A stretch of 32,000 nucleotides of DNA from Candidatus Altimarinota bacterium (GTDB taxonomy: Bacteria > Patescibacteriota > Gracilibacteria > UBA1369): assembly GCA_041659405.1 (NCBI GenBank), contig JBAZYK010000005.1, positions 31,796 through 63,795 on the forward strand, in the 5' to 3' direction. Below are positions 1 to 32,000 of the stretch, one piece after another. How positions within the stretch are numbered: position 1 is the first letter of the stretch; every line of letters starts with the position of its first letter. A program made the translations under genes and the position numbers. A model generated the notes under the pieces. The model did not search any database. It was not told the origin of the DNA and was given only the letters and a program-made list of their open reading frames with translations.

Positions 1-1545
1 TGTTACATTGGCCTGTTTTACAACCTGGTAATAAGCAATTGAAGTCTGATTATTTGGGTTGAAGATATCAGGATTGATTGTCAGGTTTTTGATGATAGTG
101 CCGGTTTGTGTGCCGGTGCTGCCGGTTGAATTAACCTGAACGTTTACCGTTTCTGTGTCTGTAACTACATTGTTGGTATTTCTAACCTGTACGGTTGCAA
201 CGTAAGTTCCATCACTAACACGGTTACCGTTTACATCACGGCCATCCCAGTTTTGAGTCTGAGTTCCTGTAGTCTTGTAAACGTTGTTAAGAAGTGTTTT
301 AGCGTATGGAGAAGCAATTTGAACTGTTACATAACCAGGATTATCCAGTGTGTAATAGATATTTGTGCTTTGAGTAGTTGGGTTGAATGGATTTGGACTT
401 ACGGAAAGGCTTGTAATACTTGGAGTTACAGAAGAAGTGTAATAGTTAACATTTACGCTTCCTGTTTTTAAATTGCCGGTTCCGTTAGCGTTGCTTGTAG
501 CAGAAACTACAACAGTGTAAGTACCGTTAACAATGCTTCCATTATCGTATTTACCGTTCCAGTTAACGCTATTTTGGTTTGCGCTTGTAGTAATTGTTTT
601 TCTTAAAACGCTGGCACTGTCGTAAATTCTTACGGTTGCGTAATCAAAAGACTTATCAACACCAAAAGAAATTGTAGCCTGTTCGCTATTGCTTGGATTG
701 AAAGTTGCCGGAGTAATGCTTAATGAATTCACATTAGGGGCAGTTACTATAGGAAGAGTGGCATATACAACATTCATTTGAGCAGTTGTACCTGTATCTG
801 CAGCGGTTGTTCCGACCGTGTAGATTTTTAATTCTCCAATATATGTTCCAGCTGGCGCATAATTACCATCGTTGTCTTTTCCGTTCCAAACTGTAAGATA
901 GTCGCCTTGTCCTACGTTCGCGGTGTCGAATGATTTAACAATATTTAGAAAGTCGTTTTTAGGATAAATCCTCAAAGTTGCGTAAACATTTTGATTACCG
1001 CTAATTCCCCAATGGATTGTAGTGTAGCTTGTTACCGGATTAAAAGTTTGAGTATCAGCATATACATAAGTAATGCGTGGAGTGTTGGCTGCATTTGTTA
1101 CATAAACATTGCCACTTGTATAATCCTGATAATCACTGGCATTCATGGTGTTTTGAACGTGGACCTTAAAATAGAATGTTCCAACAGTTGTAGGTTCGTT
1201 CCATTGAATTTCAGAAGCTCCGGCACTTAAAGGTGCGCTTGGGCTTACTTGAGTAAGTAAGTTCTTAACTAAAGATCCGCCAACCTGATAAACATCAACC
1301 TGGGCGTAAGAACCTGTATTCAATTCAAAGTGAATTGCTGGAAGAACCCCGTTGCTTCCAAGTACGTAATTAGAATTTACAACGTATGTGTTTGATAAAA
1401 CCGGAGAAGTACCAAGGGCAAGAAACACCGGTCTGAGTGGGCTAATACCGCTACCAACGACAGCTGAAGCTGATTGAATTAAGCTCATAGAGAGCATAAC
1501 CAGTACCGCCAATGCGGATGTTTTTTTGATTCCTGACGTTTTCAT
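1..1545 (-). CDS. Secreted surface protein with tandem FlgD-Ig-like (bacterial Ig-fold) repeats; its C-terminal part runs off the window start
   Basis: Absent from the supplied track because it has no in-window stop. The minus-strand ATG is the complement of 1543-1545. My translation begins MKTSGIKKTSALAVLVMLSMSLIQSASA/VVGSG (basic N-region, hydrophobic core, AxA site) and stays open for 515 codons to position 1. It has at least four ~80-90 aa repeats with the pattern FNP...V.IY...WNG.D.NG....GTY, e.g. YLTVWNGKDNDGNYAPAGTY (841-900) and VNWNGKYDNGSIVNGTYTVVV (~500-570). The + strand ORFs 253-471 and 991-1230 are shadows of it. The domain name is from motif memory. Confidence 0.8.
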   Translation of the reverse strand, partial: MKTSGIKKTSALAVLVMLSMSLIQSASAVVGSGISPLRPVFLALGTSPVLSNTYVVNSNYVLGSNGVLPAIHFELNTGSYAQVDVYQVGGSLVKNLLTQVSPSAPLSAGASEIQWNEPTTVGTFYFKVHVQNTMNASDYQDYTSGNVYVTNAANTPRITYVYADTQTFNPVTSYTTIHWGISGNQNVYATLRIYPKNDFLNIVKSFDTANVGQGDYLTVWNGKDNDGNYAPAGTYIGELKIYTVGTTAADTGTTAQMNVVYATLPIVTAPNVNSLSITPATFNPSNSEQATISFGVDKSFDYATVRIYDSASVLRKTITTSANQNSVNWNGKYDNGSIVNGTYTVVVSATSNANGTGNLKTGSVNVNYYTSSVTPSITSLSVSPNPFNPTTQSTNIYYTLDNPGYVTVQIASPYAKTLLNNVYKTTGTQTQNWDGRDVNGNRVSDGTYVATVQVRNTNNVVTDTETVNVQVNSTGSTGTQTGTIIKNLTINPDIFNPNNQTSIAYYQVVKQANVT

Positions 1546-1797
1546 AGGGAGATTGCTTAGGGATATAATAAATTAATTTTAGAAGGGATGTCCGGTGTAT
1601 AGAACCAAGTACGGTCTAATGTATTACAAAATTATTATCAATCGATTCTTGGGCAATTACACTTGCTTTTTCTTAATCTATGTAGAAAAAGGAGTGTATG
1701 ATAGTACCAATCCTGCGACTTGTCAAATTTATTTTTAGGGAAAGTGGTTAAATCGGGCGGAAAATTTTCTGTGCGGGATGATTTTCAGAGGTTTCCA

Positions 1798-4929: not shown

Positions 4930-5718
4930 ATGGCAAAGTCAAAAGAACAATTAGGTAAAATAATCCGTAAGGCAGGTGAGATATTTAGGGTGGCAGATGC
5001 TGCAGCAATACTTGAGGTATCTAATATTGAGGCAGCAAAAAGGCTGGCAAGGTGGGCGACACAGGGATGGCTCACTAGAATCCAGCGTGGATTGTATGCT
5101 CTAGTGCCTATTGAGGCTTCAACTGATAGAGCTCTTGAAGATGCCTGGATACTTGTGCCAGAACTTTTTGCTCCCTGCTACATTGGTGGTTGGTCTGCAG
5201 CAGAATACTGGGATTTTACTGAGCAACTTTTTAGAGATGTTTGCGTTATAACTGAGCGAGCTATACCTAAGAAAACACAACAGTTTCATGGTGTTCCTTT
5301 TGCTCTCACAAGAATTAATAATGCCTTATCCTTTGGCACGAAAATTATTTGGCTGAAAGAAAAGAAAATTTTGATTTCAGATCCTCATAAAACTATTATT
5401 GATATGCTTTATGACCCACAATTAGGCGGGGGGATTCAGCACATAATGGATTGCTTTAAAGAATACCTAAAAAGCTCGCATTTTAACCCTGAACAACTTG
5501 GTAACTATGCCGAAAAACTCAATAATGGGGCTGTATTTAAACGATTGGGATTTCTATCTGAGCATGAACTTGGTAAGGAGCATTCAATAACCAAGTTATG
5601 TAAATCTCGTTTAACAACAGGAAATGCATATCTAGATCCAAAACTTAAGGGTGGTGCCCTGATTACGAACTGGCGTCTTTTTGTACCTATAAATATCAAG
5701 GAAAATTATGATACCTAA
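4930..5718 (+). CDS. abiEi: AbiEi-family antitoxin / transcriptional regulator (type IV TA)
   Basis: 262 aa. The N-terminal wHTH-like segment is FRVADAAAILEVSNIEAAKRLARWATQGWLTRIQRGLYALVP. It is followed by GGWSAAEYWDFTEQ and ILISDPHKTIIDML, typical of AbiEi/COG5340. It overlaps the downstream NTase gene by 11 nt. Confidence 0.8.
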   Translation: MAKSKEQLGKIIRKAGEIFRVADAAAILEVSNIEAAKRLARWATQGWLTRIQRGLYALVPIEASTDRALEDAWILVPELFAPCYIGGWSAAEYWDFTEQLFRDVCVITERAIPKKTQQFHGVPFALTRINNALSFGTKIIWLKEKKILISDPHKTIIDMLYDPQLGGGIQHIMDCFKEYLKSSHFNPEQLGNYAEKLNNGAVFKRLGFLSEHELGKEHSITKLCKSRLTTGNAYLDPKLKGGALITNWRLFVPINIKENYDT

Positions 5719-7195
5719 GCGAGAAATTCTAGAAAGTGCAACAAACAACAGCCTCACACCACATGTAATTGAAAAGGATTACGTTTTGGGGTGGATACTT
5801 GCTGGTATTAATAATCATGCAATAATTGCTAATTCATGGATATTTAAAGGAGGAACATGCTTAAAAAAATGTTACTTCGATACCTACAGATTTTCTGAAG
5901 ATTTAGATTTTACATTACGCGATGAAAGCCACATAAATGCTGATTTTTTATTGAAGACTTTTAGTGACATAAGCAAGTGGATTTATGAATTTTCTGGCAT
6001 TGAAATACCACCAGATCGAATGATATTTGATGTTTATGAAAACCCACGCGGGAAAATGTCATGTCAGGGGCGCTTATTTTATAAAGGGCCTGCCACATCT
6101 CAATCAAAAAATGCCATGCCGCGCATTAAGCTTGATCTCTCCGTTGATGAAATTGTAGTTGCACCAACAATCATCAACTCAATCAGCCATGCATATAGCG
6201 ACTTACCTCAGGACGGATTTCATATTCAATGTTATTCCTATGAAGAAGTATTTGCTGAGAAGATACGTGCACTTGCAGAACGCACACGTCCGCGCGATCT
6301 GTATGATGTTATCAATTTTTATCGCCGTCCGGAGTCTGAAAAAAGAGCGATGCAGATAAAAGGAATCTTGCGGAAGAAATGTGAATTTAAAGGCATTGAA
6401 ATGCCAACATATTCCGCTTTGCAAAAACATAAAGATGAATGCCAAGGAGGATGGGTTGATCAATTGAACCATCAATTGCAGGCGTTACCTCCATTTGAAT
6501 CTTTCTGGAATGAATTACCGGATTTTTTTAATTGGCTAGAAAGCCCAACATCTCCTCTCGTTAGAATACATACAACAATACCAGTACAAGCAGGCACTGT
6601 TATTGATCAATCAGATATTGGTTTAATAAATTCTAGTGCAGCCGCTCCACAGTTCAACTTATTGGATAGAATTCGTTTTGCTGCAGCAAATTATCTCTGT
6701 GTGGAAATAATTTATCATCGTGAAGATGGAGCACAAAATACATATTTGATTGAGCCATATTCTCTCAGGCGTACATCAGATAACCATTTATTGCTTTATT
6801 CGTTAAAGCATAATACAGCAGACATCCGAGCTTTTAGAACTGACCGTATTATTAATGCTATAGCCACAACCACAACTTTCACCCCTAAATATCGTATAGA
6901 ATTTTTGCCGTCAGCTCCTTTAAATCCTGGTGGAGTAGTTTTAAGCTATGATCGCGATATTCTGGGTGTCTCAAAACGGAAGAAAAGTAGTAATTACTCT
7001 TTTGCAAAGCTACTTAAACCAAGCCGCTCACGTTCGTCCAGCTTTGGGTCTACGATAAAATATATTTATCAATGTCCTTTCTGCAGGAAGACTTTCCATA
7101 GAAGTAGTATGGATAGTAAATTGAATCCTCATAAAAATAAACAAGGTTGGCAATGTTCTGGAAAGACAGGAGTTTATATTAAAACAAAGTATTAG
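5708..7195 (+). CDS. abiEii: AbiEii/DUF1814 nucleotidyltransferase toxin with a C-terminal WYL-like domain and a Cys/His cluster
   Basis: The N-terminal ~280 aa carry the DUF1814 hallmarks IEKDYVLGW, FKGGTCLKK, RFSEDLDFT and EEVFAEKIRALAERTRPRDLYDV. Residues ~318-399 (nt ~6659-6904) read LDRIRFAAANYLCVEIIYHREDGAQNTYLIEPYSL...LLLYSL...IRAFRTDRIINAIATTTTF, which is a WYL-domain pattern. Residues 456-483 (nt ~7073-7156) read CPFC-x4-H-x10-H-x7-C. At 495 aa it is far longer than a typical DUF1814 protein. Confidence 0.8.
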   Translation: MIPKREILESATNNSLTPHVIEKDYVLGWILAGINNHAIIANSWIFKGGTCLKKCYFDTYRFSEDLDFTLRDESHINADFLLKTFSDISKWIYEFSGIEIPPDRMIFDVYENPRGKMSCQGRLFYKGPATSQSKNAMPRIKLDLSVDEIVVAPTIINSISHAYSDLPQDGFHIQCYSYEEVFAEKIRALAERTRPRDLYDVINFYRRPESEKRAMQIKGILRKKCEFKGIEMPTYSALQKHKDECQGGWVDQLNHQLQALPPFESFWNELPDFFNWLESPTSPLVRIHTTIPVQAGTVIDQSDIGLINSSAAAPQFNLLDRIRFAAANYLCVEIIYHREDGAQNTYLIEPYSLRRTSDNHLLLYSLKHNTADIRAFRTDRIINAIATTTTFTPKYRIEFLPSAPLNPGGVVLSYDRDILGVSKRKKSSNYSFAKLLKPSRSRSSSFGSTIKYIYQCPFCRKTFHRSSMDSKLNPHKNKQGWQCSGKTGVYIKTKY

Positions 7196-7274: not shown

Positions 7275-7895
7275 ATGAAAATAAAAATAGTAGCATTAGT
7301 TTCATTGCTTTTATTCACTGGATGCTCGTTTTCTAAGCAACCTGAGGCGTTTTTGGGTACAAAATTTGGAATGTCATCTGCAGAAGTAGAAAATGTTGTT
7401 GGTAAAAAACTACTAACTGGTGATGAGTATTTAGCTGACGCATCAAATCCAAAGTTTTTTGATTGGCTTGCTAAAAAGTATGGAGCGATTGCAATAAATA
7501 ATGTCCCGCTAGACAAGGAATATGCTGATAGATCGAAGGATTTTTTTATGTCTAGGATAATGCTTTATGACTTTCCGGCAGGAACTGATTTTAATTTTTT
7601 GGACGATAAGTTGAATAATGTTTCTGTCAATTTTGACGTAATGTTTGGGAATGCAGATGACCTACTTGGTAAAATTAAAGAAAGTCTTGAGAAAAATTAT
7701 AAATTTATTGTAAAAGAGGACAGCAAAGATGTGCCTGGAGCTTACACTTTAAAATATCAAAAAGACGATGTTAATGTTGATTTATGGATTAATGCAGTCG
7801 GACAAAATAAATATGTCAATTTAGATATTCATTACCTGCCTTTTAATAAGGCTTATGATGAAGAACTTAAAAAACGAGAGCAGAAAGCTTTATAA
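7275..7895 (+). CDS. Hypothetical lipoprotein
   Basis: MKIKIVALVSLLLFTGCS is a signal peptide with lipobox LFTG|C. The rest is unrecognised. Confidence 0.65.
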   Translation: MKIKIVALVSLLLFTGCSFSKQPEAFLGTKFGMSSAEVENVVGKKLLTGDEYLADASNPKFFDWLAKKYGAIAINNVPLDKEYADRSKDFFMSRIMLYDFPAGTDFNFLDDKLNNVSVNFDVMFGNADDLLGKIKESLEKNYKFIVKEDSKDVPGAYTLKYQKDDVNVDLWINAVGQNKYVNLDIHYLPFNKAYDEELKKREQKAL

Positions 7896-7935: not shown

Positions 7936-8964
7936 TTAGGATAGCTTATTTAACAAATCTTCGGCAAAAGTATTCAAATTTCCGTCATTTGTATCTTCAA
8001 AAATATCGACTAACTTTTTATCAAATTGCGCAACCCTAGCTTCCCATATTGCTTTAGTCTCTAATTCTTTTTTCACTCCGGAATCATCTTGTGAATAACA
8101 TAATTGATTTTTGATTTTCTTCATATTTCCAACTATAACCAAACGCAGATGATAATTTTTCACTGCATCCAAAATAACATCATTAATGTGCTTATCCCTA
8201 AAACTATATCCGATAACCACTAATGTTGCTCCATCTCTACATAATACCTCTCTAAATAGCCACAAATAGAAAGCGAGCAATGGTTCTTTTTCCAAATCTC
8301 TAGGCTTATTCTTTCCAAAAATCATTCCATCAGAACCGTCAGCAGATAACCAGCCGTATGAGCCATGCAATTTTATATAATTTAAGTCATTCAAATCACG
8401 ATAATCTCCAACGTGGCCTTCGGCAGCAGAAACGCGACCTTTAAGTTTCTCAATCTCTGATAAATTGGGAAGCTGTACAAAATCTTTTCTCTCTAAAACC
8501 TGCTTTTTATTTAACTTTGCTGCTTCAGCAATAGGTATACCATAGGCTTTCATCCCACTACGACTCTCGTGTAATAGATCCTGATTCAGTGTAAAGAAAA
8601 ACCCTTTTTGGCTCCCCCTGCCTATAATTCGTTGTATCAAAGTCCTTCCGACTTTACTGTATGTTCCACCTGCCTTATTAAAATCACTTTTTAATTCTTT
8701 ATCTAAAGCTTTATAAGCATCAATAACTAGCTCTCTTGCAATGGTTTTATCCTTCGGATTTATATCGTTTGATGCGTCTATTTCTGAATAGATGCCTTCA
8801 TAATCAAGATCGTCAGAGTTACTAATAATTCCTCGCGCAATATCTGACAAAGAATTTATCCTCGAATTATTAAAAATCTTTTCATACATGTCACTAGCCA
8901 AAAAGCCACCATAATTGGCAGTGTAACCAGCACCAGTAAGTAAGATATTTTTCGAATAATCCAT
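7936..8964 (-). CDS. Stand-alone SIR2-like (SIR2_2 family) protein, putative NADase-type defence effector
   Basis: 342 aa with ILLTGAGYTANYGG (GAG nucleotide-binding start), FFFTLNQDLLHE (the TTNYD.L.E equivalent), YIKLHGSYGW (catalytic His motif) and LVVIGYSFRDKHIN. I recognise no fused sensor domain. Confidence 0.7.
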   Translation of the reverse strand: MDYSKNILLTGAGYTANYGGFLASDMYEKIFNNSRINSLSDIARGIISNSDDLDYEGIYSEIDASNDINPKDKTIARELVIDAYKALDKELKSDFNKAGGTYSKVGRTLIQRIIGRGSQKGFFFTLNQDLLHESRSGMKAYGIPIAEAAKLNKKQVLERKDFVQLPNLSEIEKLKGRVSAAEGHVGDYRDLNDLNYIKLHGSYGWLSADGSDGMIFGKNKPRDLEKEPLLAFYLWLFREVLCRDGATLVVIGYSFRDKHINDVILDAVKNYHLRLVIVGNMKKIKNQLCYSQDDSGVKKELETKAIWEARVAQFDKKLVDIFEDTNDGNLNTFAEDLLNKLS

Positions 8965-9246: not shown

Positions 9247-9912
9247 ATGCAATCACAGGCGTCTAAAATTCTTTTTTCCGTAATTCTTACTGCAGTTATC
9301 GTTGGGGGAGGTGTTTATTTTTGGCAGCATCAAGAAGCCGCTCAGATCACGACTCCAGTAGTAACTGTAAAAGATTCGGAACAACTTAATATAAAGCCAG
9401 TAACACAAGAATCCACTTCAACAGATCTTTTTGAATTAGCAAAAAACACAAAAGATGAGTTCACTTATCTTGTCTCAGCACCAAAATTAACTGGTGACTG
9501 GAAAATGACAATAAATAACAATTCTGGAGATTATGTCCTTCGTTTTTCTTTAAAATATAAATATTCTCCTTGGGGAGAGTTGCGCTATACTAAGGCCGAT
9601 TTAACTGCGACTGATGGAGCTCCTCCTGTAAATGGTCTCTCAGGTGTTGCTTCTTATAGTTTCTGTGCCGGTCAATACTATTGTGATGAAACTAATCATA
9701 AAGGAATGGGCTTTGATCTTACATTTTGGAATGCAAAATTTATTGGAAGAGCAGCAGATCCAAAATTTTATTTAAAAGATGGTGAAACTTTTCTTAAAGA
9801 AACGGACAAATATATAGTTACCTATAAGCCATTTACTGGCTCGCCTGCTAATCAACAGGTGAAAGTGAATCAAGAAGTCTCAGACCTTGTGAGTTCTTTC
9901 GAGATTTATTAG
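9247..9912 (+). CDS. Hypothetical membrane-anchored protein
   Basis: The N-terminal TM/signal anchor is ILFSVILTAVIVGGGVYFW. The rest is unrecognised. Confidence 0.6.
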   Translation: MQSQASKILFSVILTAVIVGGGVYFWQHQEAAQITTPVVTVKDSEQLNIKPVTQESTSTDLFELAKNTKDEFTYLVSAPKLTGDWKMTINNNSGDYVLRFSLKYKYSPWGELRYTKADLTATDGAPPVNGLSGVASYSFCAGQYYCDETNHKGMGFDLTFWNAKFIGRAADPKFYLKDGETFLKETDKYIVTYKPFTGSPANQQVKVNQEVSDLVSSFEIY

Positions 9913-10192: not shown

Positions 10193-10353
10193 CCAGGATC
10201 AGATGGATGAGCGGCTGAAGCACCGAGAAGTGAAAAAACTTTTAATACAGTCAAAGAAAAAATAATTGGCAGTCGCCCCACCACCGATCTTGTAACACTT
10301 TTTTGGGAATCCTGTTATATTGTGATGTATCATTTCTTAATCCCCTTTTCCCT

Positions 10354-12192
10354 ATGAAAAAATTGTCATTGGCCATGCTGGGAGTGCTTGGCATCACGGT
10401 TGTTTTGGCTGGTTGTAGCGCCGAAACAGTTACAACCCCAAGTTCAACCACTCCGGTTACTGTTCTAACTCAGACGCAGGCCACTCAAACCGAGCAAACT
10501 ACTCAGACTCAACAATCTTTTCAGGTTACTCCGGTTGAAACAAACGAAGTTTCATTTACTAAGACGACAGCACTTACCCCTGAATCTGTGCTTTCACAGG
10601 CCAAAATAACCAAGCTTGTTGCTGCGTATAATGATAATCTGAAAATTACAGATCCAAAACAAAAAATTGACTGGGGAACAAATTATCCTGGAGGTATGGG
10701 CGGCGATTCATCACTCAAAGCTTCATTCCGTTTTTATAATGCGGGCAAATTGAAGGTTGCACCTTATAAAGATTGGGATCTGCTAGTGCTTTCACTTGGT
10801 TGTGATGGGCCTTGCGATCATAATCCGGTTTATCGTTTGGCGCAGAATCCTGCCAACCAGGACCTTACTATGCTCACAAAATATTCCGACGATTTAAGTG
10901 ATAGTCGTATAGTTGGCTTGTTGGCTGCAATAACTCAAGATAAAAAATTTACAATCCCTGCGCTTGATTTGCCGGCAACATTAGCGATTACGGGCTCCAC
11001 AGCTGTGCTGAAGCTAAAATTTGCTGACAGTGAATATATTCCCGACTTAATCAAGTTAGCACCTGCGTACAGAAATTTTTACACCAAGGTACTTTATAAT
11101 TCCACGATCGGGCCGGTTTATGCATACGACACCAATTTGAATTCGAATGGATCAGGTGTTGGCTGTGTCCAAGTCAAAAAGCCTGATGGTTCAGTCGCGA
11201 CCTACGCTTTTGAGACGGGATTCGACAATAATAAGTTAACCATGAAACCTGTGGGCGGAACGGAAATGCCCGTGGCTGGAAACTATGAACCCGGACAACG
11301 TGGCTGCGGTATCGGTAGCAATTGTTATTATACAACATCGGTCAACGAGAAAAATCTTCAAGAATATGTAACTCTTTCCAATGGGCTGAAACTTTATGCA
11401 CCGATAAAAACTGATGAAAAAGCTGATCCACTAAATGTGACAGACGATGTTGGACTGATGAATTCTACCTACAAGCAATATGCCAGCTCTTACCAATACG
11501 GTGATACTTCCAAACCAAAGCTGACTTTTGCCCAATATGTAACCAACCATCCGGTGTTATTTTGGCAGGATCCGTTCAAGCGCTGGAGCACGTTGGTTTC
11601 TTCAAAGTTTGCGTCGCCTGCGGAATGCGGCAAACCGGTCATTTATCTCTATCCTCAAAAAGATACTAAGGTAAGCGTAAAAGTTGGAATTGATAAAATC
11701 ACCAAGAGCGATCCAAATTATGGTACAAACGGCTGGACTGTTTTGGCGCATGTTGGAGGCTTATTGACCAACTTAGCCGACGGCAAAGACTATCCGTATC
11801 TGTTTTGGGAAGGCCAGAGCAGCAAAATGATTGGGGTAGAAAATGGCTTTAGCGTGGCCCGTGGCGATCTTGAAAATTTCTTAAATCGCACTTTAAAACA
11901 GGCCGGATTAAATGCGCAGGAAAGCAAAGATTTTATGGAATTCTGGTATCCAAGAATGATGGCGAACAAGCAGCCGTACTTCATAATCAGCTTTGTGGGA
12001 ACAACTGAGTTCAATAAAATTGCACCTCTTAATATTTCCCCAAAACCGGATACCTTGGCGAGAGTATTTATGTATTATCAGCCAAGTTATGCCAACATAA
12101 ATCTTAGACCGCAAGTAATAAATGGCTTTGCGCGCCGCGGATTTACAGTTGTTGAATGGGGCGGGACTTCCAATATCCCATGGGTATACTAA
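10354..12192 (+). CDS. Large hypothetical lipoprotein
   Basis: I moved the start from the track's 10303 to the internal ATG, giving MKKLSLAMLGVLGITVVLAGCS (lipobox LAG|C). A T/Q-rich linker follows (TQTQATQTEQTTQTQQ). The C-terminal region PVIYLYPQKDTKVSVKV...YLFWEG is unrecognised. Confidence 0.65.
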   Translation: MKKLSLAMLGVLGITVVLAGCSAETVTTPSSTTPVTVLTQTQATQTEQTTQTQQSFQVTPVETNEVSFTKTTALTPESVLSQAKITKLVAAYNDNLKITDPKQKIDWGTNYPGGMGGDSSLKASFRFYNAGKLKVAPYKDWDLLVLSLGCDGPCDHNPVYRLAQNPANQDLTMLTKYSDDLSDSRIVGLLAAITQDKKFTIPALDLPATLAITGSTAVLKLKFADSEYIPDLIKLAPAYRNFYTKVLYNSTIGPVYAYDTNLNSNGSGVGCVQVKKPDGSVATYAFETGFDNNKLTMKPVGGTEMPVAGNYEPGQRGCGIGSNCYYTTSVNEKNLQEYVTLSNGLKLYAPIKTDEKADPLNVTDDVGLMNSTYKQYASSYQYGDTSKPKLTFAQYVTNHPVLFWQDPFKRWSTLVSSKFASPAECGKPVIYLYPQKDTKVSVKVGIDKITKSDPNYGTNGWTVLAHVGGLLTNLADGKDYPYLFWEGQSSKMIGVENGFSVARGDLENFLNRTLKQAGLNAQESKDFMEFWYPRMMANKQPYFIISFVGTTEFNKIAPLNISPKPDTLARVFMYYQPSYANINLRPQVINGFARRGFTVVEWGGTSNIPWVY

Positions 12193-23772: not shown

Positions 23773-24669
23773 ATGACTACTGACTTTTCACAACAACGCT
23801 TGGAAAAATATCAACAGACACTTAAGCAAAATTACACCGGCTGTCTTTTTGATATTGATGGGACTCTAACTGTACGAGGTGACGAATTCATGCCGGAATT
23901 TATGAATCAACCTTTGGCGGAAATGGCTTTACAGATACCCATGGGCGTGTGCACGGCAAGAAGACTTGCTCACGCTTACGAAAAACTTGCGCCGATGTTT
24001 ATGAAATCTTCCAATCCGTTAAAAAGTCAGGAAAATTGGGTTTTGATTTGTGAAAATGGTGGAATTGGTTATGTTTTTGATCCTGTGAAAAAGAAATATG
24101 AAGAATTTTTCAGAGTGGATTTTTTTTATGATGACGAGCAAAAAAACAATATCTATGAACAGATAAAAAATGCGCTTGGTGATAAAGTTGGCGTCTCTTT
24201 TCAAAACGAAGTTAGTATTGTTTTTCGGCCAATCAACGTTGACGATAATGACCGTGAAGAATTGGCCAAAAGAAGCCATGAGCTCGCCATGATGATTAAG
24301 GAGGTTTTACCAAAATATGATCCAAAAACTGTTTTAAGAATTGGCGATTCCGGAATTGGAGTGGTGGTTTTTCCATATACCGGAAATAAAGAAAACGGGA
24401 CCGCCATGTTCGCGAAATATCTAAGCAAAAAAAATGGATATAAATTTAGTCCAAATCTGCAGGAAATTGTGGTTGTAGGCGATCAACCGATTCCGGGCGG
24501 GAATGATGAATTTTTTCTGGATGGCAAATATGGCACGCCTTTCACAGTTGGCGAAGTTCATCCCCAGAATCTATTGCCCTTACCGGTCTATAAGAGCGAT
24601 AATGAAATTATAAAAGGCCCCGAGGGGACTTTAAGTTTATTACAACAATTACACTTTAATCATGATTGA
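23773..24669 (+). CDS. HAD-superfamily hydrolase (Cof/IIB-like)
   Basis: Motif I is LFDIDGTLT, with C-terminal GDQPIPGGNDEFF (motif IV-like) and a large cap region. Confidence 0.65.
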   Translation: MTTDFSQQRLEKYQQTLKQNYTGCLFDIDGTLTVRGDEFMPEFMNQPLAEMALQIPMGVCTARRLAHAYEKLAPMFMKSSNPLKSQENWVLICENGGIGYVFDPVKKKYEEFFRVDFFYDDEQKNNIYEQIKNALGDKVGVSFQNEVSIVFRPINVDDNDREELAKRSHELAMMIKEVLPKYDPKTVLRIGDSGIGVVVFPYTGNKENGTAMFAKYLSKKNGYKFSPNLQEIVVVGDQPIPGGNDEFFLDGKYGTPFTVGEVHPQNLLPLPVYKSDNEIIKGPEGTLSLLQQLHFNHD

Positions 24670-25327
24670 ATTTTCACAAGAAAACCAGCGCGTGGGGATA
24701 TTTATTGACACACAAAATTTGTATCACTCCGCCAGGTCTATATTTAATGCCCGCGTGAATTACGGAACATTGATCGAAACGGCCATTCAAGGACGTAAAT
24801 TTATGAGAGCTTTTGCTTATGTAATCAGATCCGAATCGGCGGATGAAATTAAATTTTTTGAAGCGCTGTCCGATTTGGGCATAGAGATGCGCGTAAAGGA
24901 TTTGCAAATTTTTTACAGCGGAGAAAAAAAGGCGGATTGGGATGTTGGTATTGCGATTGATATTGTGCGCATGACGGAAAAACTGGATGCGGTTGTTTTG
25001 GTTAGCGGTGATGGCGATTTTGTTGAGGTTTTGCGTTATGTGAAATCACGTGGTGTAAAAGCGGAAGTAATGGCTTTTAGAAAGACGACTTCCGCTAAAT
25101 TGCTGGAAGAAGTGGATGTTTTTTATGATTTGGGAGCCGATCCGGGCAGATTTTTGATTCCAAGTGGAAAGCCACAGCGACTTCCCGAAAAAGGGCTGAT
25201 GCCTGGCAAACCACAAGGCAATCCAGTGCCAGGAAGGCCTCAAGTACAAGGAAAACCACAAGACAGCGGAAAACCTATACAGCCTTCCAAACCTTTTCAA
25301 AAAGTTAGACGAAGGTTAGTGGCATAA
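24662..25327 (+). CDS. NYN-domain (LabA/DUF88-like) protein with a P/Q/K-rich C-terminal tail
   Basis: VGIFIDTQNLYHSAR, DWDVGIAIDIV and VVLVSGDGDFVEVLRYVKSRG are the NYN/LabA acidic motifs. The tail has GKPQ/GRPQ quasi-repeats. The gene overlaps the HAD gene by 8 nt (ATGATTGA). Confidence 0.8.
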   Translation: MIEFSQENQRVGIFIDTQNLYHSARSIFNARVNYGTLIETAIQGRKFMRAFAYVIRSESADEIKFFEALSDLGIEMRVKDLQIFYSGEKKADWDVGIAIDIVRMTEKLDAVVLVSGDGDFVEVLRYVKSRGVKAEVMAFRKTTSAKLLEEVDVFYDLGADPGRFLIPSGKPQRLPEKGLMPGKPQGNPVPGRPQVQGKPQDSGKPIQPSKPFQKVRRRLVA

Positions 25328-28599: not shown

Positions 28600-28685
28600 G
28601 GGCGAGTGGCGAAATGGCAGACGCGCTACCTTCAGGAGGTAGTGATCGCAAGGTCATGGAGGTTCAAGTCCTCTCTCGCCCACCA
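28600..28685 (+). tRNA. tRNA-Leu (anticodon CAG)
   Basis: Acceptor GGGCGAG/CTCGCCC, anticodon stem CTACC/GGTAG with loop TTCAGGA, a 15-nt variable arm (class II), T arm GGAGG-TTCAAGT-CCTCT, discriminator A and encoded CCA. Track ORFs 28564-28779 and 28572-28757 are artefacts over it. Confidence 0.9.
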
Positions 28686-28736
28686 GATTTGCGCGGCAAA
28701 TCCGGCCCCGCCAAGGCGGGACCAAAAATCAACAAT

Positions 28737-29582
28737 CTACTCTTTTGGCTTTCTTAATTGCTTATTCACGTTACCTTGAAGGTAATTTCCCTTTGAAATA
28801 ACGCTTCTTCCGAGCTCTTTTTCTGTCTGCTTTCGTGCGCCACCTGCGACATTTCCACCCCGCTTGGCCACTTTTTTATGCTCTATCATTACTTTTGGCT
28901 TTTCCTTGTGGGAAATCTCCGTTGTTACTTTCTCCCCAAGCATTGTAAAAATCAGCTCCAGGTCGGTCATATTGTCCCTCAAATTTGCTTTGGATTTGTC
29001 AGGTATTTCTTTGTATTTTCTGTACTCATTCGGAGTCATGCCAAAAGTAGCCTTTGAAATTTCAGCGGTCAAAATTGCATAATCCTCCTCGTGCATAAGG
29101 CCCCGCTCTTTCCATTCATCCGTCAAATTCTGGCGGATCGCAATGCCACGCAAGCGTTTATCAATCCAGTCTTTGGAATAGCCCTTTTTCTCGTAAAGTT
29201 TCTTCATGCGCTCTTGTGCAAGTTCGGGATTTTCAATTTCATCCAGTCGCTCTTTTCCAACTTCGGCAAGCCACATTTTGAATGGTTCAGCTTTTTTACT
29301 CGGAATTGATTGTACCAGGCGAAATGCATTCTTGGTATTTACGCAGTCGGTAAGCCTTTCTTTCCCGTCAGTAGCTACAAGTTTCAACTGTCCCCAAATT
29401 GGGGACAGTTGAATTTCGATAAATTCCCTTTGTTTAACTTTTTCCCAATACTGCCTCGGCGTAGGGCTATCGGTAAGTGCTTCAATAATATCCACTACCG
29501 AATAAAACCACTCATCATTATGCCAAATTCGGCGGATCTTTTTTGATTGGAAGAGTACGAGCTTGTTTTGTCGATTGTCCAT
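28737..29582 (-). CDS. Bro-N domain protein (DinD / phage antirepressor-like)
   Basis: The N-terminus, FQSKKIRRIWHNDEWFYSVVDIIEALTDS...TKNAFRLVQSIPSKKAEPFKMWLAEVG, is a Bro-N pattern. The C-terminal half (NLRDNMTDLELIFTMLGE) resembles DinD-like proteins. Confidence 0.7.
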   Translation of the reverse strand: MDNRQNKLVLFQSKKIRRIWHNDEWFYSVVDIIEALTDSPTPRQYWEKVKQREFIEIQLSPIWGQLKLVATDGKERLTDCVNTKNAFRLVQSIPSKKAEPFKMWLAEVGKERLDEIENPELAQERMKKLYEKKGYSKDWIDKRLRGIAIRQNLTDEWKERGLMHEEDYAILTAEISKATFGMTPNEYRKYKEIPDKSKANLRDNMTDLELIFTMLGEKVTTEISHKEKPKVMIEHKKVAKRGGNVAGGARKQTEKELGRSVISKGNYLQGNVNKQLRKPKE

Positions 29583-29667
29583 AATTTTAGAAGTTAGAAA
29601 TAACTCATTTTATTTTTACCACACAAACATTAAAAAATTCTAAAATCTTTCTTAAATAAAAATGAAA

Positions 29668-29775
29668 ATAACCTGCACCGCGCCACGCCCCCGAAGAGCA
29701 TTATTCTGATTATCGGGATTGTTCCAATTGAAGTTGACCTGACGATTCTTCGGATTGAAATTACCGTAGGCGATT
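29668..29775 (-). repeat. DGR template repeat (TR)
   Basis: Hand alignment to the VR uses a constant offset of 524 nt with no gaps. In 29670-29775 there are 29 coding-strand adenines (T on +). Sixteen of them differ from the VR, and none of the 77 non-adenine positions differ. The sense strand reads GCC TAC GGT AAT TTC AAT CCG AAG AAT CGT CAG GTC AAC TTC AAT TGG AAC AAT CCC GAT AAT CAG AAT AAT GCT..., rich in AAY codons, which is the classical DGR design. Confidence 0.85.
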
Positions 29776-30140
29776 ATTGACCGGATGTGTCCGTAAACAT
29801 AAACGTTGTCGCAACAACGCCATGCGCATTGGTTTGCTTTTTCACCCTCTTTGTTGAGATGCATATCTCGGATTTACTTGAGAGTACAACCGGCTCAAAC
29901 GTGCAGGTTTATTTTCATGTAAAATGCTGGCACAAGCCCCTGCTTTTGCCCCGCCAGGGCGGGATGCTACGAAGCTTTTGAATGTGCCACCATTCAGCGG
30001 TAGCCTTAGACCACATTGCGACCATTCTATGGATTTTCAAGGATGACCACCGCTTGGCGGGGTCTTGGACAAGTCCAGGTTGCTATTCACCGACGTTGAA
30101 ATATTAATCCTTGATGTGAAAAAATTAAAGCTAAAATTAG

Positions 30141-30158
30141 GCCCCGCTGCGGCGGGGC
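30141..30158 (-). promoter_or_regulatory. GC hairpin 33 nt downstream of the VR (terminator of the target gene and/or DGR target-recognition hairpin)
   Basis: GCCCCGC-TGCG-GCGGGGC has a 7-bp stem and a 4-nt loop. On the coding strand it is followed by an A/T-rich tract. Confidence 0.55.
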
Positions 30159-30187
30159 TTAAGAAAAAGCAAAGATCAAATTTCAAT

Positions 30188-31654
30188 TTATAAAACCTGC
30201 ACCGCGCCACGCCCCCGAAGAGCAACATCCCGATTATCGGGATCGGCCCAATCGAAGGCGACCTGACGACGCTCCGGATCGAAATAACCGTAGGCGAATT
30301 TACTTATTTTAGAATTATGTTCTTGATTGAACATCGTCACTGTTTCTTGTGGCTGATCGTAAAAATCAATAATATGTTTTCCCGGATTTGACTCCCCATT
30401 CTTCTTTGCTTTCGCATAGGCACGCAGTGAGCGTTGCATGCCCATGGCATACTGATGGTCGTGTATAAGCTCCATTCCCTGTTCCTTGAAGTAGCTTTCA
30501 CAAACGCGTAGCTGTTCATCATTGCGCTGTTTTCTGGGTTGCTGCCCCGGAACAACCGCCGGACTTTGAACCATATCGACAATGCTGACGCCGACCTTTT
30601 TAGGACCTTCGGGCCATTCATAATCAGTTGCAAAATAAGCTCTATGCTGCTGCTCATAATGGCGATTTACATCCAAATCCATATCATCCTTCATTTCAGC
30701 AAAAGATTTATTGGCGGGTTCAATAATCAGTTCAGGTTTACCCATAATGGATGCTATCTTTTCAAGCTTTTTCGTACCCAGTTTTAAAATATTGGCAATA
30801 ACCTCTTCTTTGGAAGGCGCGACAATGTCCGGATCAAACTCTCTGGCCGTGGCAAGGGCTTCTTCATATCCACTGACAACACTAAGAAGTTTTTCTTTTT
30901 GTTCCGTGGTTAAACGGAGGCGATCAACGAATTGCTGATAATCTTTTTCTAATTTTGCTTCCACTGCTTTTTTAAAATATTCTCCATATGCGATTGGCCC
31001 GGTAGTTTCTATGCTTTTTGCGACACCATGACCAGCGCCTACCTCTGCTTTTGCACCCTGATTCGCCAATTCCAATACACGGGCAGATCTTTTAGCCACA
31101 AACTCACGAATATCAACAATTTTTCCTGTCTGATCAAGCTTTTCTTCCTGTTGCTGCAACGATCTGCGACCTTCAGCATCAAGCTTTGCCATTTTTTCAT
31201 CCCGCTCCGCTATGAGTTTCTCAAGCTGTTGCTGCACATGAAGAGTTTCGACGGCAATGTGCTTCTTCTCTGCTGTTGAAAGTACTGTGGGTTCGATTTT
31301 TTTAGATTTTGGCTCAGGTCGATCAACCAGCCATCGTGCGATTTTTAAAGGTGACTTGCTTAAGCTCAAAGCAACCCTTTTATGCCATGGAGATGCGGGT
31401 TTTTGCACCATGGGTATTTCCGGACTTTGAGGTTCATCTTCCAGACTTTCCATCAAATATTCATAATCATGGTGAAGGAGCTCAATCCTGGTTTCTAGAG
31501 CCATAATATCCTCCAATAGTTTTGATTGCTCGGCTTGAGTTAAAGAACCAGCAGTTTGATTTTTTTCGCCGGCTTGTGCGGTTTTCTGACCTTTTTCTCC
31601 TTCAGAATCTGAAACAGATAGATCGCCTGAATCCGCAGTATGTGGTTTTCCCAT
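30188..31654 (-). CDS. DGR target (variable) protein, 488 aa, otherwise uncharacterised
   Basis: Track ORF. The N-terminal half is charged and coiled-coil-like with no signal peptide. The C-terminus ...FAYGYFDPERRQVAFDWADPDNRDVALRGRGAVQVL carries the VR. Confidence 0.8.
   Translation of the reverse strand: MGKPHTADSGDLSVSDSEGEKGQKTAQAGEKNQTAGSLTQAEQSKLLEDIMALETRIELLHHDYEYLMESLEDEPQSPEIPMVQKPASPWHKRVALSLSKSPLKIARWLVDRPEPKSKKIEPTVLSTAEKKHIAVETLHVQQQLEKLIAERDEKMAKLDAEGRRSLQQQEEKLDQTGKIVDIREFVAKRSARVLELANQGAKAEVGAGHGVAKSIETTGPIAYGEYFKKAVEAKLEKDYQQFVDRLRLTTEQKEKLLSVVSGYEEALATAREFDPDIVAPSKEEVIANILKLGTKKLEKIASIMGKPELIIEPANKSFAEMKDDMDLDVNRHYEQQHRAYFATDYEWPEGPKKVGVSIVDMVQSPAVVPGQQPRKQRNDEQLRVCESYFKEQGMELIHDHQYAMGMQRSLRAYAKAKKNGESNPGKHIIDFYDQPQETVTMFNQEHNSKISKFAYGYFDPERRQVAFDWADPDNRDVALRGRGAVQVL
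30192..30299 (-). repeat. DGR variable repeat (VR), last ~35 codons of the target gene
   Basis: The VR sense strand reads GCC TAC GGT TAT TTC GAT CCG GAG CGT CGT CAG GTC GCC TTC GAT TGG GCC GAT CCC GAT AAT CGG GAT GTT GCT... Its 3' 31 nt (30194-30224, GC-rich: CTTCGGGGGCGTGGCGCGGTGCAGG) are identical to the TR, as expected for an IMH-like end. Confidence 0.85.
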
Positions 31655-31717: not shown

Positions 31718-32000
31718 CTAAAAAATCATGATCAAATCCCCTAAATTAGTTCCGGTTGGGCCGGTTTTGATGAGGCCGTTTGTTTTTTTGAAAAAAGTGT
31801 AGGAGTCGTTGCGATTTAAAAAGTCGTCGATTTTTAAGTGTTGTTTTTGGGCTGACTGTAAAATGGCTTGATGGCCGATCGCTCCGGCGATTGGCTCGGG
31901 ACAGATGCCATCAACGCCGTCGGTGCCAATTGAAAGGATGCAGTAATTGGAAAGTGCAGAATCCGCAGAAGTGTTTTTTTTAAATTCGTTTTTGGCCTGC
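31718..32000 (-). CDS. MOFRL-domain protein (glycerate 2-kinase / hydroxypyruvate reductase-like), C-terminal fragment; the 5' part is beyond the window
   Basis: My minus-strand translation ends ...SIGTDGVDGICPEPIAGAIGHQAILQSAQ...NDSYTFFKKTNGLIKTGPTGTNLGDLIMIF* (stop is the complement of 31718-31720). GTDG.DG and TGPTGTN..D are MOFRL C-terminal motifs. Confidence 0.7.
   Translation of the reverse strand, partial: QAKNEFKKNTSADSALSNYCILSIGTDGVDGICPEPIAGAIGHQAILQSAQKQHLKIDDFLNRNDSYTFFKKTNGLIKTGPTGTNLGDLIMIF

Follow-up and report, generated by a model that had tools for sequence, protein, structure and literature searches.

Evidence for a DGR target gene and its template RNA

The locus described here is, on balance, best read as a chromosomal diversity-generating retroelement (DGR) target with its template RNA, of the CPR 'B3' type, which has lost avd and the reverse transcriptase (RT) gene and was recently orphaned, its VR most likely being frozen. 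Either the locus is a recently frozen remnant of this kind or it is served in trans. Twelve tip residues of a 488-aa protein have been rewritten by copying of TR with adenine-only errors, and TR forms the 3' part of a non-coding RNA of ~430 nt. Covariation demonstrates that one strand of this RNA pairs with the 3' end of TR and then, 2 nt further on, with the 8 nt just upstream of TR; the functions suggested for these duplexes are read from analogy. The features are collected in Table 1, in which positions refer to the window, i.e., the whole 32-kb stretch of DNA analysed.

Adenine-specific differences between VR and TR

A computed ungapped comparison matched VR to TR over 106 nt without gaps, both on the minus strand, at an offset of 524 nt and with 16 mismatches, the same numbers as in the first-pass annotation. 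At all 16 mismatches (VR positions 30298, 30286, 30280, 30274, 30271, 30270, 30259, 30258, 30253, 30247, 30246, 30244, 30231, 30229, 30226 and 30225) the coding-strand (minus-strand) base of TR is A. Accordingly, 16 of the 29 TR adenines were altered in VR (10 to G, 3 to C and 3 to T), as against none of the 77 other bases, exactly as had been claimed; a mismatch at a non-adenine position, named at the time as the contrary outcome, did not occur. The probability of all 16 mismatches falling at adenines by chance is 1.8e-11 (hypergeometric). Similarity has sharp edges, at 30299/30300 (5') and after 30194 (3'), and the pair was also returned by an independent repeat search (family D1).

Within codons, 11 changes fell at position 1, five at position 2 and none at position 3. 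In TR, 28 of the 29 adenines occupy codon positions 1 or 2, and 10 of 37 codons are AAT or AAC (AAY). The residues that differ between VR and TR are 453, 457, 459, 461, 462, 466, 468, 470, 471, 475, 476 and 477, and the variable positions of VR are also hypervariable across 15 homologs of the target protein. The final 31 nt of VR and TR are GC-rich and identical, as reported before. No IMH/IMH* difference was detected in the window, such a difference being present in L015 and L007, and no third VR/TR copy was found within the 32 kb.

The GC hairpin that follows VR consists of a 7-bp all-GC stem and a 4-nt loop, CGCA, and its position is conserved in L014, L007, L008 and L069. It resembles a terminator for the target gene, and it may also be a DGR-target hairpin or cruciform. 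Post-VR hairpins/cruciforms of DGRs were described at distances of 4-34 bp and with the loop consensus GRNA (PMC3240598), from which the loop in the window departs.

With adenine-only mismatches, an AAY-rich TR and a VR at the 3' end of an ORF, the original assignment of the two repeats to a DGR held up. Additional support came from the identical GC-rich 3' segment followed by a GC hairpin, and from the RT and Avd encoded beside the equivalent RNA and TR in orthologous loci. By the sequence criteria tested, the pair is supported as a genuine DGR footprint. Because no non-adenine position differs between VR and TR, the last rewriting of VR was a recent one.

A structured RNA between VR and TR

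The 412-nt spacer between VR and TR had previously been treated as empty. It was found to contain a structured RNA with covariation and is the most informative part of the locus. In the fold, 90% of cells were paired, compared with 37-47% when the partners were slid; 13 pairs showed compensatory changes, and none of 500 shuffles reached the observed values. Both duplexes that flank TR (a1/a2 and b1/b2) covary in six lineages, and the strand shared by them lies upstream of TR. Specifically, 86% of cells were paired in a1/a2, with three covarying pairs (6 lineages), and this helix was also recovered by the repeat search (I13) and by a single-sequence MFE fold of the window. In b1/b2, 100% of cells were paired, and two pairs changed from G-C to A-U in L070. 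The GU linker region, CACGTTTGAGCC, is invariant in 6 lineages. Since one strand pairs both with the 3' end of TR and with the segment preceding TR, it holds TR in a loop. If the Bordetella phage RNA is a guide, a 2'-OH for priming would be presented across from the first templated G by the first duplex, and the second would stop RT at the 5' edge of TR.

The 5' part of the RNA contains an invariant closing helix (CGGUGAAUAGC...GGCUACCG) and, as internal elements, hairpins at 30064-30045 and ~29966-29948; its long stem, UGAAUGG...CCAUUUUA, is located directly 5' of the primer-like strand a1. By position, SL2 would correspond to the RT-binding stem-loop of the phage RNA, and the A-rich strand, judged from element order, may be the counterpart of its A-minor adenosines plus 'Thumb Ring'. 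All conserved RNA elements are intact in the window, including a2 at the edge of the breakpoint.

We infer that the template RNA is transcribed from a promoter of its own. The candidate was read from the alignment, in which the relatives carry TTGAAA, a 16-nt spacing and TAGTAT at this site; it was not called by a promoter consensus scan of the window.

An Avd or other ORF in the spacer was considered and rejected, as only implausible short ORFs are present and conservation tracks RNA pairing rather than codons. No Rfam family reached its gathering score for the spacer RNA (best E-value 0.15 over 24 nt). Of 51 viral DGR loci with RTs of 23-40% identity, none was matched by the covariance model R1, and motif scans of viral contigs were negative as well. 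A generic energy-based scan for 'two adjacent duplexes' in other DGRs failed its BPP-1 positive control and was dropped.

Table 1. Features of the locus and its flanks, with positions in the window.
Feature	Position	Strand	Remarks
MOFRL (glycerate-kinase-type) gene, 3' end	31724..32000	-	directly upstream of the target gene
Target gene, 488 aa	30188..31654	-	identical to 'hypothetical protein WC843_03240, Candidatus Gracilibacteria bacterium' (NCBI MAG)
VR	30194..30299	-	last 35 codons of the target gene; 12 residues rewritten by adenine-specific substitutions
GC hairpin GCCCCGC-CGCA-GCGGGGC, then CTAATTTT	30141..30158	-	35 nt 3' of VR
Candidate template-RNA promoter, TTTAAT, 17 nt, TAATAT	30101..30129	-	read from the alignment
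Template RNA, 5' part	29917..30094	-	7 pairs with compensatory changes among 4 sequences
a1, GAAAAUAAACCUGCAC, primer-like strand	29901..29916	-	complementary to a2, at the 3' end of TR and its flank
GU linker between the two duplex-forming strands	29899..29900	-	invariant dinucleotide
b1, UUGAGCCGG, one bulged G, stop-like strand	29890..29898	-	pairs with b2 just upstream of TR
SL1, variable stem-loop UACUCUC...GAGGGUG	29843..29886	-	73% of cells paired in an alignment that is imperfect here
A-rich single strand AAAAAGCAAACCAAUGC	29826..29842	-	sequence conservation
SL2, stem-loop with conserved loop UUGCGA	29797..29825	-	98% of cells paired; compensatory changes in 6/10 pairs
b2, CCGGUCAA	29777..29784	-	ends 1 nt before TR; partner of b1
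TR	29670..29775	-	29 adenines, 10 AAY codons, non-coding
a2, GUGCAGGUUAUUUUC	29664..29678	-	last 9 nt of TR plus 6 nt of flank; partner of a1
Bro-N domain gene	28737..29582	-	in place of the relatives' avd and RT; not a DGR part
tRNA-Leu(CAG)	28600..28685	+	next feature after the Bro-N gene; flank only

Absence of avd and RT from the window

In Peregrinibacteria/Gracilibacteria relatives, the full cassette runs from the target gene with VR through a non-coding RNA stretch of ~330 nt to TR, followed by avd, which is encoded on the opposite strand, and then RT. A bAvd (PF22296; NF033474, E = 1.5e-15) comes right after the equivalent RNA and TR in L014-L017, L069 and L070, all of which also carry the DGR-type RT motif IGNL(S/T)SQ; avd lies on the opposite strand directly after TR in these loci and in L007 and L008. 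The adenine bias between VR and TR was likewise observed in four related lineages. Moreover, L070, an intact DGR, has the same MOFRL-then-target synteny as the window, the MOFRL neighbour being 43% identical.

Domain searches of all ORFs of 100 aa or longer revealed neither an RT (RVT_1) nor an Avd in the window, which represents 32 kb of a 106-kb contig that is itself part of a larger genome. A tblastn search of the window with the Avd and RT of L014 gave a best E of 0.3 and no remnants after TR. Similarity to the intact relatives stops ~10 nt past TR, near 29660. The intact relatives, the MOFRL synteny shared with L070 and the end of similarity so close to TR therefore support a loss of avd and RT. 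Contigs from two further samples carry the junction between TR and the Bro-N gene with 100% identity. That the Bro-N gene lies in a tRNA-linked island bounded by att repeats was considered and rejected, since neither a tRNA 3'-end repeat nor a composition shift was seen.

Decay recurs within this family. A deletion extends from mid-TR into RT in L003, L004 and L006, with RT further broken in L003, and the target gene alone remains in L005, L013 and L009-L012. As for the activity that the first-pass annotation had envisaged, the footprint is genuine, but RT and Avd are absent from the window, a possibility flagged at the time, and DGR activity at this locus is unproven for that reason.

Some Gracilibacteria read UGA as Gly. 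In the window, the long ORFs are intact under table 11, which was kept in preference to an alternative genetic code; one stretch alone, 1-1572, seemed empty, and it proved to be an ORF that continues past the edge of the window, with no in-frame TGA.

The target protein

The locus belongs to the MAG that contains protein MFA5829483.1. The N-terminal half of the target protein appears disordered or coiled-coil, and its conserved C-terminal domain (~250 aa) had no Pfam or NCBIfam match; neither a recognisable domain nor a transmembrane segment was found in the protein. The structure prediction proposed earlier as a check for a C-type-lectin-like fold yielded a confident AF2 model of the last 248 aa (pLDDT 90, pTM 0.90), but its lectin-like matches were weak, and the search gave no confident structural match for the fold of the C-terminal domain. 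The 90%-identity cluster of the protein consists of 1 sequence, present in two MAG records, and no VR variants are on record among database entries.

Frozen remnant or service in trans

We consider the VR most likely frozen because avd and RT are missing from 30 kb or more to one side, while the other side is bordered by a conserved housekeeping neighbour. This reading has to accommodate a -35 element of the candidate promoter that is weaker in the window than in the relatives, which counts against it, as do the identity of VR and TR at 77/77 non-adenine positions and the intact RNA elements, both of which would also be expected of an active system served in trans. Such service is possible, though we think it the less probable alternative: an RT-Avd encoded elsewhere, such as that of another DGR from this clade, would bind the template RNA in trans, and VR would still be diversified. 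The rearrangement stops just outside the RNA, leaving its conserved blocks and both TR-flanking helices intact, and throughout the RT clade the core of the RNA shows high conservation, which makes recognition by a paralogous RT-Avd plausible. Also in favour is a related genome, GCA_041738505.1, in which one contig has an intact DGR and another has a member of the target family that lacks TR. In experiments with BPP-1, plasmid-borne TR and brt act in trans on the phage VR, which also favours service in trans, as does the report that co-transcription of TR and RT is not required (Wu et al. 2018, PMC5758913). The opposite is suggested by the immediate adjacency of avd and RT in every intact relative and by the lack of recorded VR variants; in addition, two RT searches produced, within their best 120 hits, no RT attributable to this MAG by name or accession, which is a weak test.

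The missing genes might also reflect an assembly artefact, the contig having been mis-joined at the 31-nt segment common to VR and TR. Assemblers do break there, since contigs L001 and L002 start exactly inside the shared 31-mer. However, the true post-TR flank of L014 and L008 has its homologue here in ATTTTCAT, the sequence after TR, which places the Bro-N junction in unique sequence beyond the repeat, and the junction recurs in three independent data sets; a mis-join is thus very improbable. That VR and TR are the remnant of an ordinary duplication or gene conversion with a coincidental adenine bias is favoured by nothing except the absence of RT from the window, and it is already refuted by the strict confinement of changes to adenines, by the repetition of this bias in the four related lineages and by the DGR RT and Avd of the orthologous loci. 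A recently orphaned module with a frozen VR is the interpretation that we prefer.

Implications

DGRs are the only systems in nature known to hypermutate proteins in a targeted way, and what is understood of their mechanism comes from one phage system. CPR bacteria have the highest DGR density. We tentatively propose, as a possibility that we hold to be somewhat short of probable, that the DGR RNA of the large CPR TR-(avd)-RT clade is a circularly permuted form of the Bordetella phage RNA and that target-plus-RNA modules could persist and be diversified by an RT-Avd encoded elsewhere. In such a permuted form, primer strand, 2-nt linker, stop strand, A-rich single strand and RT-binding-like stem-loop would all precede the template on its 5' side instead of following it, and the RNA would end right after TR. 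As a self-contained gene with its own promoter, such a template RNA could persist together with its target and be served by RT-Avd from another place. A published survey of conserved DGR RNA elements covered only 40 nt upstream and 100 nt downstream of TR, a range in which an upstream element of this kind would be missed.

If the permuted RNA is real, the way in which the phage system primes and stops (two adjacent duplexes formed by one strand, 2 nt apart) would be conserved and the connectivity of the RNA would be flexible. It would also offer a compact natural design in which the RNA has the template at its 3' end, an arrangement of interest to those who engineer DGRs for mutagenesis, and a specific covariance model with which the template RNA could be annotated in CPR DGRs. 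Furthermore, the window illustrates a route of decay in which RT and Avd are lost while target, TR and RNA stay perfect; such loci will therefore be missed by RT-anchored DGR finders and called active by VR/TR-anchored ones.

Comparison with known systems

Incomplete or degenerate cassettes and targets away from the RT were reported in DGR surveys (DGRscan/MyDGR; Wu et al. 2018), and the locus resembles them in having components without the full set. In those cases, it is usually a second VR/target that leaves, TR staying with RT, whereas here TR and the RNA stay with the target and RT/Avd are gone.

The CPR/DPANN DGR architecture B3 is TR-(avd)-RT (Wu et al. 2018, PMC5758913), assigned to 'DGR clade 2' (Roux et al. 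2021, PMC8144416). The relatives of the locus share this gene order, the avd on the opposite strand and the CPR hosts (Peregrinibacteria/Gracilibacteria), and the target lacks a recognisable domain and a transmembrane segment, as reported for CPR targets. The window itself differs in lacking avd and RT. No mention of a structured RNA upstream of TR was found in the CPR B3 DGR literature searched.

In retrons, a 2'-OH next to an inverted-repeat duplex primes cDNA synthesis. The msr-msd RNA is similar to the RNA described here in that inverted repeats (here a1/a2) bracket the template and a primer-like strand lies 5' of it. The likeness is one of RNA topology only: the RTs of the related loci are DGR-type (IGNLxSQ motif, paired with Avd), the product of a DGR takes the place of a gene segment instead of building up as msDNA, and no retron effector is present.

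The closest parallels are to Bordetella phage BPP-1 (mtd-avd-TR-Spacer-brt), for which donor-plasmid assays (PMC3240598) and the DGR RNA (Handa et al., bioRxiv 10.1101/2023.10.23.563531) have been described. In both systems, VR and TR differ in an adenine-specific manner and share a GC-rich 3' end, and VR is followed by a GC hairpin, which here also looks like a terminator. In both RNAs, one strand forms two adjacent duplexes 2 nt apart, the first nucleotide of the linker being G; the phage counterpart of the linker is Sp57-58, in which G57 is required (Handa et al., bioRxiv 10.1101/2023.10.23.563531). One duplex is formed with the 3' end of TR, the next templated base being G, and the other, with one unpaired base, is formed with the segment just upstream of TR; next, in the same order in both, come one stem-loop, a single strand rich in A and another stem-loop. 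The two systems differ in that no sequence similarity exists between them, the avd of the relatives is on the opposite strand, and the functions of the elements here are putative. Above all, the Spacer strand of BPP-1 lies downstream of TR, whereas its apparent equivalent here lies upstream, as would be expected of a circular permutation.

VR/TR pair and target protein

The first-pass annotation had described a gapless 106-nt repeat with copies 524 nt apart and 16 mismatches, and a computed ungapped comparison of the variable repeat (VR) with the template repeat (TR) on the coding (-) strand reproduced it exactly. The TR base was A at all 16 mismatches (10 changed to G, 3 to C and 3 to T), which confirmed the adenine-only substitution: 16 of the 29 TR adenines were changed in VR, and non-adenine mismatches, named earlier as evidence against the claim, were looked for and found at 0 of 77 positions. 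The probability that all 16 mismatches hit adenines by chance was 1.8e-11, and the pair, correctly recognized at first reading, is a genuine footprint of a diversity-generating retroelement (DGR). Both edges of the repeat were sharp, with sequence likeness stopping abruptly, and no third copy was found within the window. The footprint belongs to a well-known type, and the host group is already known as DGR-rich.

The VR changes were confined to codon positions 1 or 2, which hold 28 of the 29 TR adenines; AAT or AAC accounts for 10 of the 37 TR codons. The translations of VR and TR differed at 12 amino acids (residues 453-477).

The target protein matched nothing in Pfam or NCBIfam, and neither a signal peptide nor a transmembrane segment was seen on inspection by eye. 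Only 15 relatives were found among 5.8 billion clustered proteins. The region common to them is the C-terminal ~250 aa, ending in a 35-residue stretch of the form Y.G.F.P..R..V.F.W..P......LRGRGAVQVM, in which dots mark TR-adenine codons whose residues vary among proteins. The C-terminal 248 aa were modelled confidently with AlphaFold from the 15-sequence alignment (pLDDT 90, pTM 0.90), with VR forming the last three strands; a shorter construct folded poorly in modelling. Foldseek searches with this model returned no match among viral models and only weak matches in the PDB, the best being C-type lectin domains and EgtB/SenA (E 0.3-0.8). Because these matches are weak, a lectin-like fold is only possible rather than established. 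This agrees with the published statement that DGR targets in CPR usually lack recognisable domains and may include new lectin-fold variants.

Gene neighbourhood

No RT or Avd (DGR accessory protein) domain was present in any window ORF of at least 100 aa, and tblastn of a close relative's Avd and RT against the window gave a best E of 0.3. Besides the genes flanking the DGR elements, the window contains housekeeping genes (Suf operon, thyA, folA, thioredoxin reductase and peroxiredoxin) and an AbiEi/AbiEii pair. An alternative genetic code, considered given the Candidatus Gracilibacteria label, was rejected, as ORFs are intact under table 11. The seemingly empty left end of the window is in fact an ORF running out of it, and its product is probably a surface protein. 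The weak SIR2_2 match, together with its flanking unannotated ORFs, may be a piece of a defence island.

Features of the DGR locus and other observations in the window
Feature	Position	Strand	Remarks
MOFRL (glycerate-kinase-type) gene end		-	upstream of target; leaves window
Target gene	30188-31654	-	488 aa; VR is its end
VR	30194-30299	-
GC hairpin with T-run	30158-30141		after target gene
GCCCCGCC..GGCGGGG hairpin	30134-30156		after target gene
GCCCCGCC..GGCGGGG hairpin	29941-29963		within template RNA
GCCCCGCC..GGCGGGG hairpin	28698-28720		after tRNA-Leu/Bro-N
CGGTGAATAGC	30092		start of invariant blocks
Key strand (a1-GU-b1)	29916-29890		GAAAAUAAACCUGCAC-GU-UUGAGCCGG
b2	29784-29777		CCGGUCAA
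TR	29670-29775	-
a2	29678-29664		GUGCAGGUUAUUUUC; TR 3' end and flank
Bro-N domain gene	28737-29582	-	downstream of TR
Inverted repeat	29383-29413		in Bro-N gene; perfect, 15 nt, TTCAACTGTCCCCAA/TTGGGGACAGTTGAA, 1 nt apart
tRNA-Leu(CAG)	28600-28685	+	downstream of TR, with Bro-N gene
Mrp/ParA ATPase gene			downstream of TR, with Bro-N gene and tRNA-Leu(CAG)
NYN-domain (RNase-like) protein	24662-25327	+	repetitive Pro/Gly/Gln/Lys-rich tail
342-aa protein	7936-8964	-	SIR2_2, E = 2e-4, under Pfam cut-off
Unannotated ORFs	7275-7895, 9247-9912, 10303-12192
AbiEi antitoxin, then AbiEii nucleotidyltransferase fused to WYL domain	4930-7195	+	type IV toxin-antitoxin or abortive infection
Large ORF exiting window	1-1572	-	N-terminus resembles signal peptide; numerous Ig-like repeats rich in Thr/Asn/Val, with 'NPFNP' motifs

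Related loci

For comparison, DNA was fetched for target relatives, loci with a 22-nt spacer motif and loci with related RTs. Intact cassettes were found in L014-L017 (four samples), L069 and L070, in the order target/VR, GC hairpin, ~200-330 nt of non-coding sequence, TR, avd and RT. Their avd, on the strand opposite to the target, encodes a 114-aa bAvd (PF22296 above threshold; NF033474 at E = 1.5e-15), and their RT (~320-360 aa), on the target's strand, carries the DGR-type IGNL(S/T)SQ motif. VR/TR mismatches were biased to adenines, with 20 of 22 (L015), 19 of 19 (L008) and 21 of 22 (L007) falling there. The gene order TR-(avd)-RT is architecture B3, which accounts for 90% of CPR DGRs (Wu et al., PMC5758913). 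At L014 6925-6966, avd and the RT frame meet head to head, either overlapping or abutting: avd, on the - strand, starts at 6953, and the RT frame, on the + strand, is open from 6925 on and has ATG codons near 6934. The promoter of each must therefore sit within the coding sequence of the other.

Other loci were partial or decayed. L007 and L008 contain VR, spacer, TR and the avd C-terminus before the contig ends; L006, L003 and L004 have lost the stretch between mid-TR and about residue 65 of RT, with RT broken further in the latter two; L005 retains just 35 nt at the start of the spacer; and L013 and L009-L012 retain the target gene alone. The deletion junction, CAAGGTCAA joined to TGACAAAACG, is common to L003/L004 (11600-12400) and L006 (5500-6400). 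Despite this, many TR-adenine positions differ between their VRs, and L006 has the same VR as the intact L014 (5964-6069); recombination, recurrent deletion or in-trans diversification after the deletion are possible explanations. Additionally, assembly GCA_041738505.1 holds an intact B3 DGR (L069 2300-4999) and, on another contig, a TR-less target-family member (L009 6001-6975). The latter adjoins three tandem DUF4256 genes, and the homolog at L010 3104-4847 likewise lies beside DUF4256.

Structured template RNA

The 412-nt VR-TR spacer is a structured RNA rather than empty sequence. In relatives, the GC hairpin after the target gene is followed by a promoter-like TTGAAA, 16 nt and TAGTAT; the putative window counterpart is TTTAAT, 17 nt and TAATAT, which would be weaker. 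From CGGTGAATAGC on, invariant blocks are interleaved with hairpins whose stems show compensatory substitutions. No Rfam family matched the spacer RNA. The three GCCCCGCC..GGCGGGG hairpins resemble one another and may represent a terminator-type motif that is common in this genome.

The first part of the key strand, a1, is the reverse complement of a2; this pair was recovered independently by a repeat search of the window and also formed when the window sequence by itself was folded to minimum free energy. The second part, b1, pairs with b2 with one G bulged, and b2 ends 1 nt ahead of TR. Pairs were counted in a six-lineage alignment (window, L014, L007, L008, L069 and L070) for a structure that we specified, comprising a1/a2, b1/b2 and two stem-loops (SL1 and SL2). 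In this structure 90% of cells were paired, versus 37-47% with partners slid by 1-3 columns; 13 pairs were changed on both sides, and 0 of 500 shuffles reached the observed values. Specifically, b1/b2 was paired in all six sequences, with two pairs changed from G-C to A-U in L070, and for a1/a2, 86% of cells were paired and three pairs covaried. All six lineages share CACGUUUGAGCC (12 nt) without change. Past TR, conservation ends after UUUAUUUUC, save what avd coding accounts for. A search with R1, a covariance model of the RNA core, matched only these lineages; it gave no hit in 51 viral DGR loci, whose RTs are distant. A generic duplex scan was discarded, having missed the BPP-1 (Bordetella phage DGR) control.

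Probable loss of avd and RT

The window retains complete VR, spacer and TR. Its likeness to L014 and L008 runs through ...GGTT(T)ATTTTCAT and ends ~10 nt past TR, at the position of the relatives' avd stop region. The intact cassette L070, carried by a Gracilibacteria contig of 331 kb, has a MOFRL gene (43% identity to the window's fragment) directly upstream of its target. As MOFRL precedes the target in both, this suggests the same chromosomal site, now without avd and RT. Mis-assembly at the TR-to-Bro-N junction is unlikely, because the junction lies in unique sequence past the 31-mer shared by VR and TR; it also recurs at 100% identity in L001 and L002, which stem from two further sequencing runs. 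A search for an att-like repeat or a shift in composition that might account for the arrival of the Bro-N gene found neither.

We lean slightly towards the locus being a recently orphaned module that would now be static. The frozen state is favoured by the presence of avd and RT beside TR in every intact relative and their absence here, by recurrent decay in the target family, and by the record of the target, which holds no VR variants and an identical protein in two MAG records. The best 120 matches of RT searches included no RT attributable to the window's MAG, a weak test that was counted on the same side. Recent or continuing activity is favoured by the identity of VR and TR at every non-adenine position and by the intact RNA elements, which the rearrangement misses by a few nucleotides. 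Service of the module in trans by an RT-Avd pair encoded elsewhere is conceivable but less likely.

Comparison with the BPP-1 RNA

In BPP-1, TR is followed by the Spacer (Sp) RNA. Sp47-56 pairs with TR117-129, A56 primes and G117 is templated first; Sp57-58 follow, of which G57 is required, and Sp59-70 then pairs with 11 nt upstream of TR, one base unpaired (cPRT Stop). A short stem-loop, unpaired adenosines and the single-stranded 'Thumb Ring' come next, followed by a long stem-loop that binds RT; a stem-loop that binds Avd lies ahead of the primer strand (Handa et al., bioRxiv 10.1101/2023.10.23.563531). The elements of the window RNA follow the BPP-1 order along a single strand: a long stem-loop precedes a1, GU and the singly bulged b1, after which come SL1, an A-rich single strand (AAAAAGCAAACCAAUGC) and SL2, with a conserved UUGCGA loop. 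Within TR, the base just 5' of a2, which would be templated next, is G, as is G117. Unlike in BPP-1, the key strand lies 5' of TR and SL2 continues into b2 and TR, and the two RNAs have no sequence similarity. Since the order is the same but the strand is 5' of TR in the window, each RNA looks like a circular permutation of the other, judging from topology and covariation.

A published survey of DGR RNA elements covered just the 40 nt before TR and the 100 nt after it and was therefore blind to an upstream arrangement, of which no description was found in the searchable literature. Two aspects lift the locus above routine: template and target are in perfect condition without enzyme genes, and the template lies within a covariation-supported RNA of permuted-like layout. 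The BPP-1 RNA is the only mechanistically understood DGR RNA, and the window layout suggests a permuted version of it.
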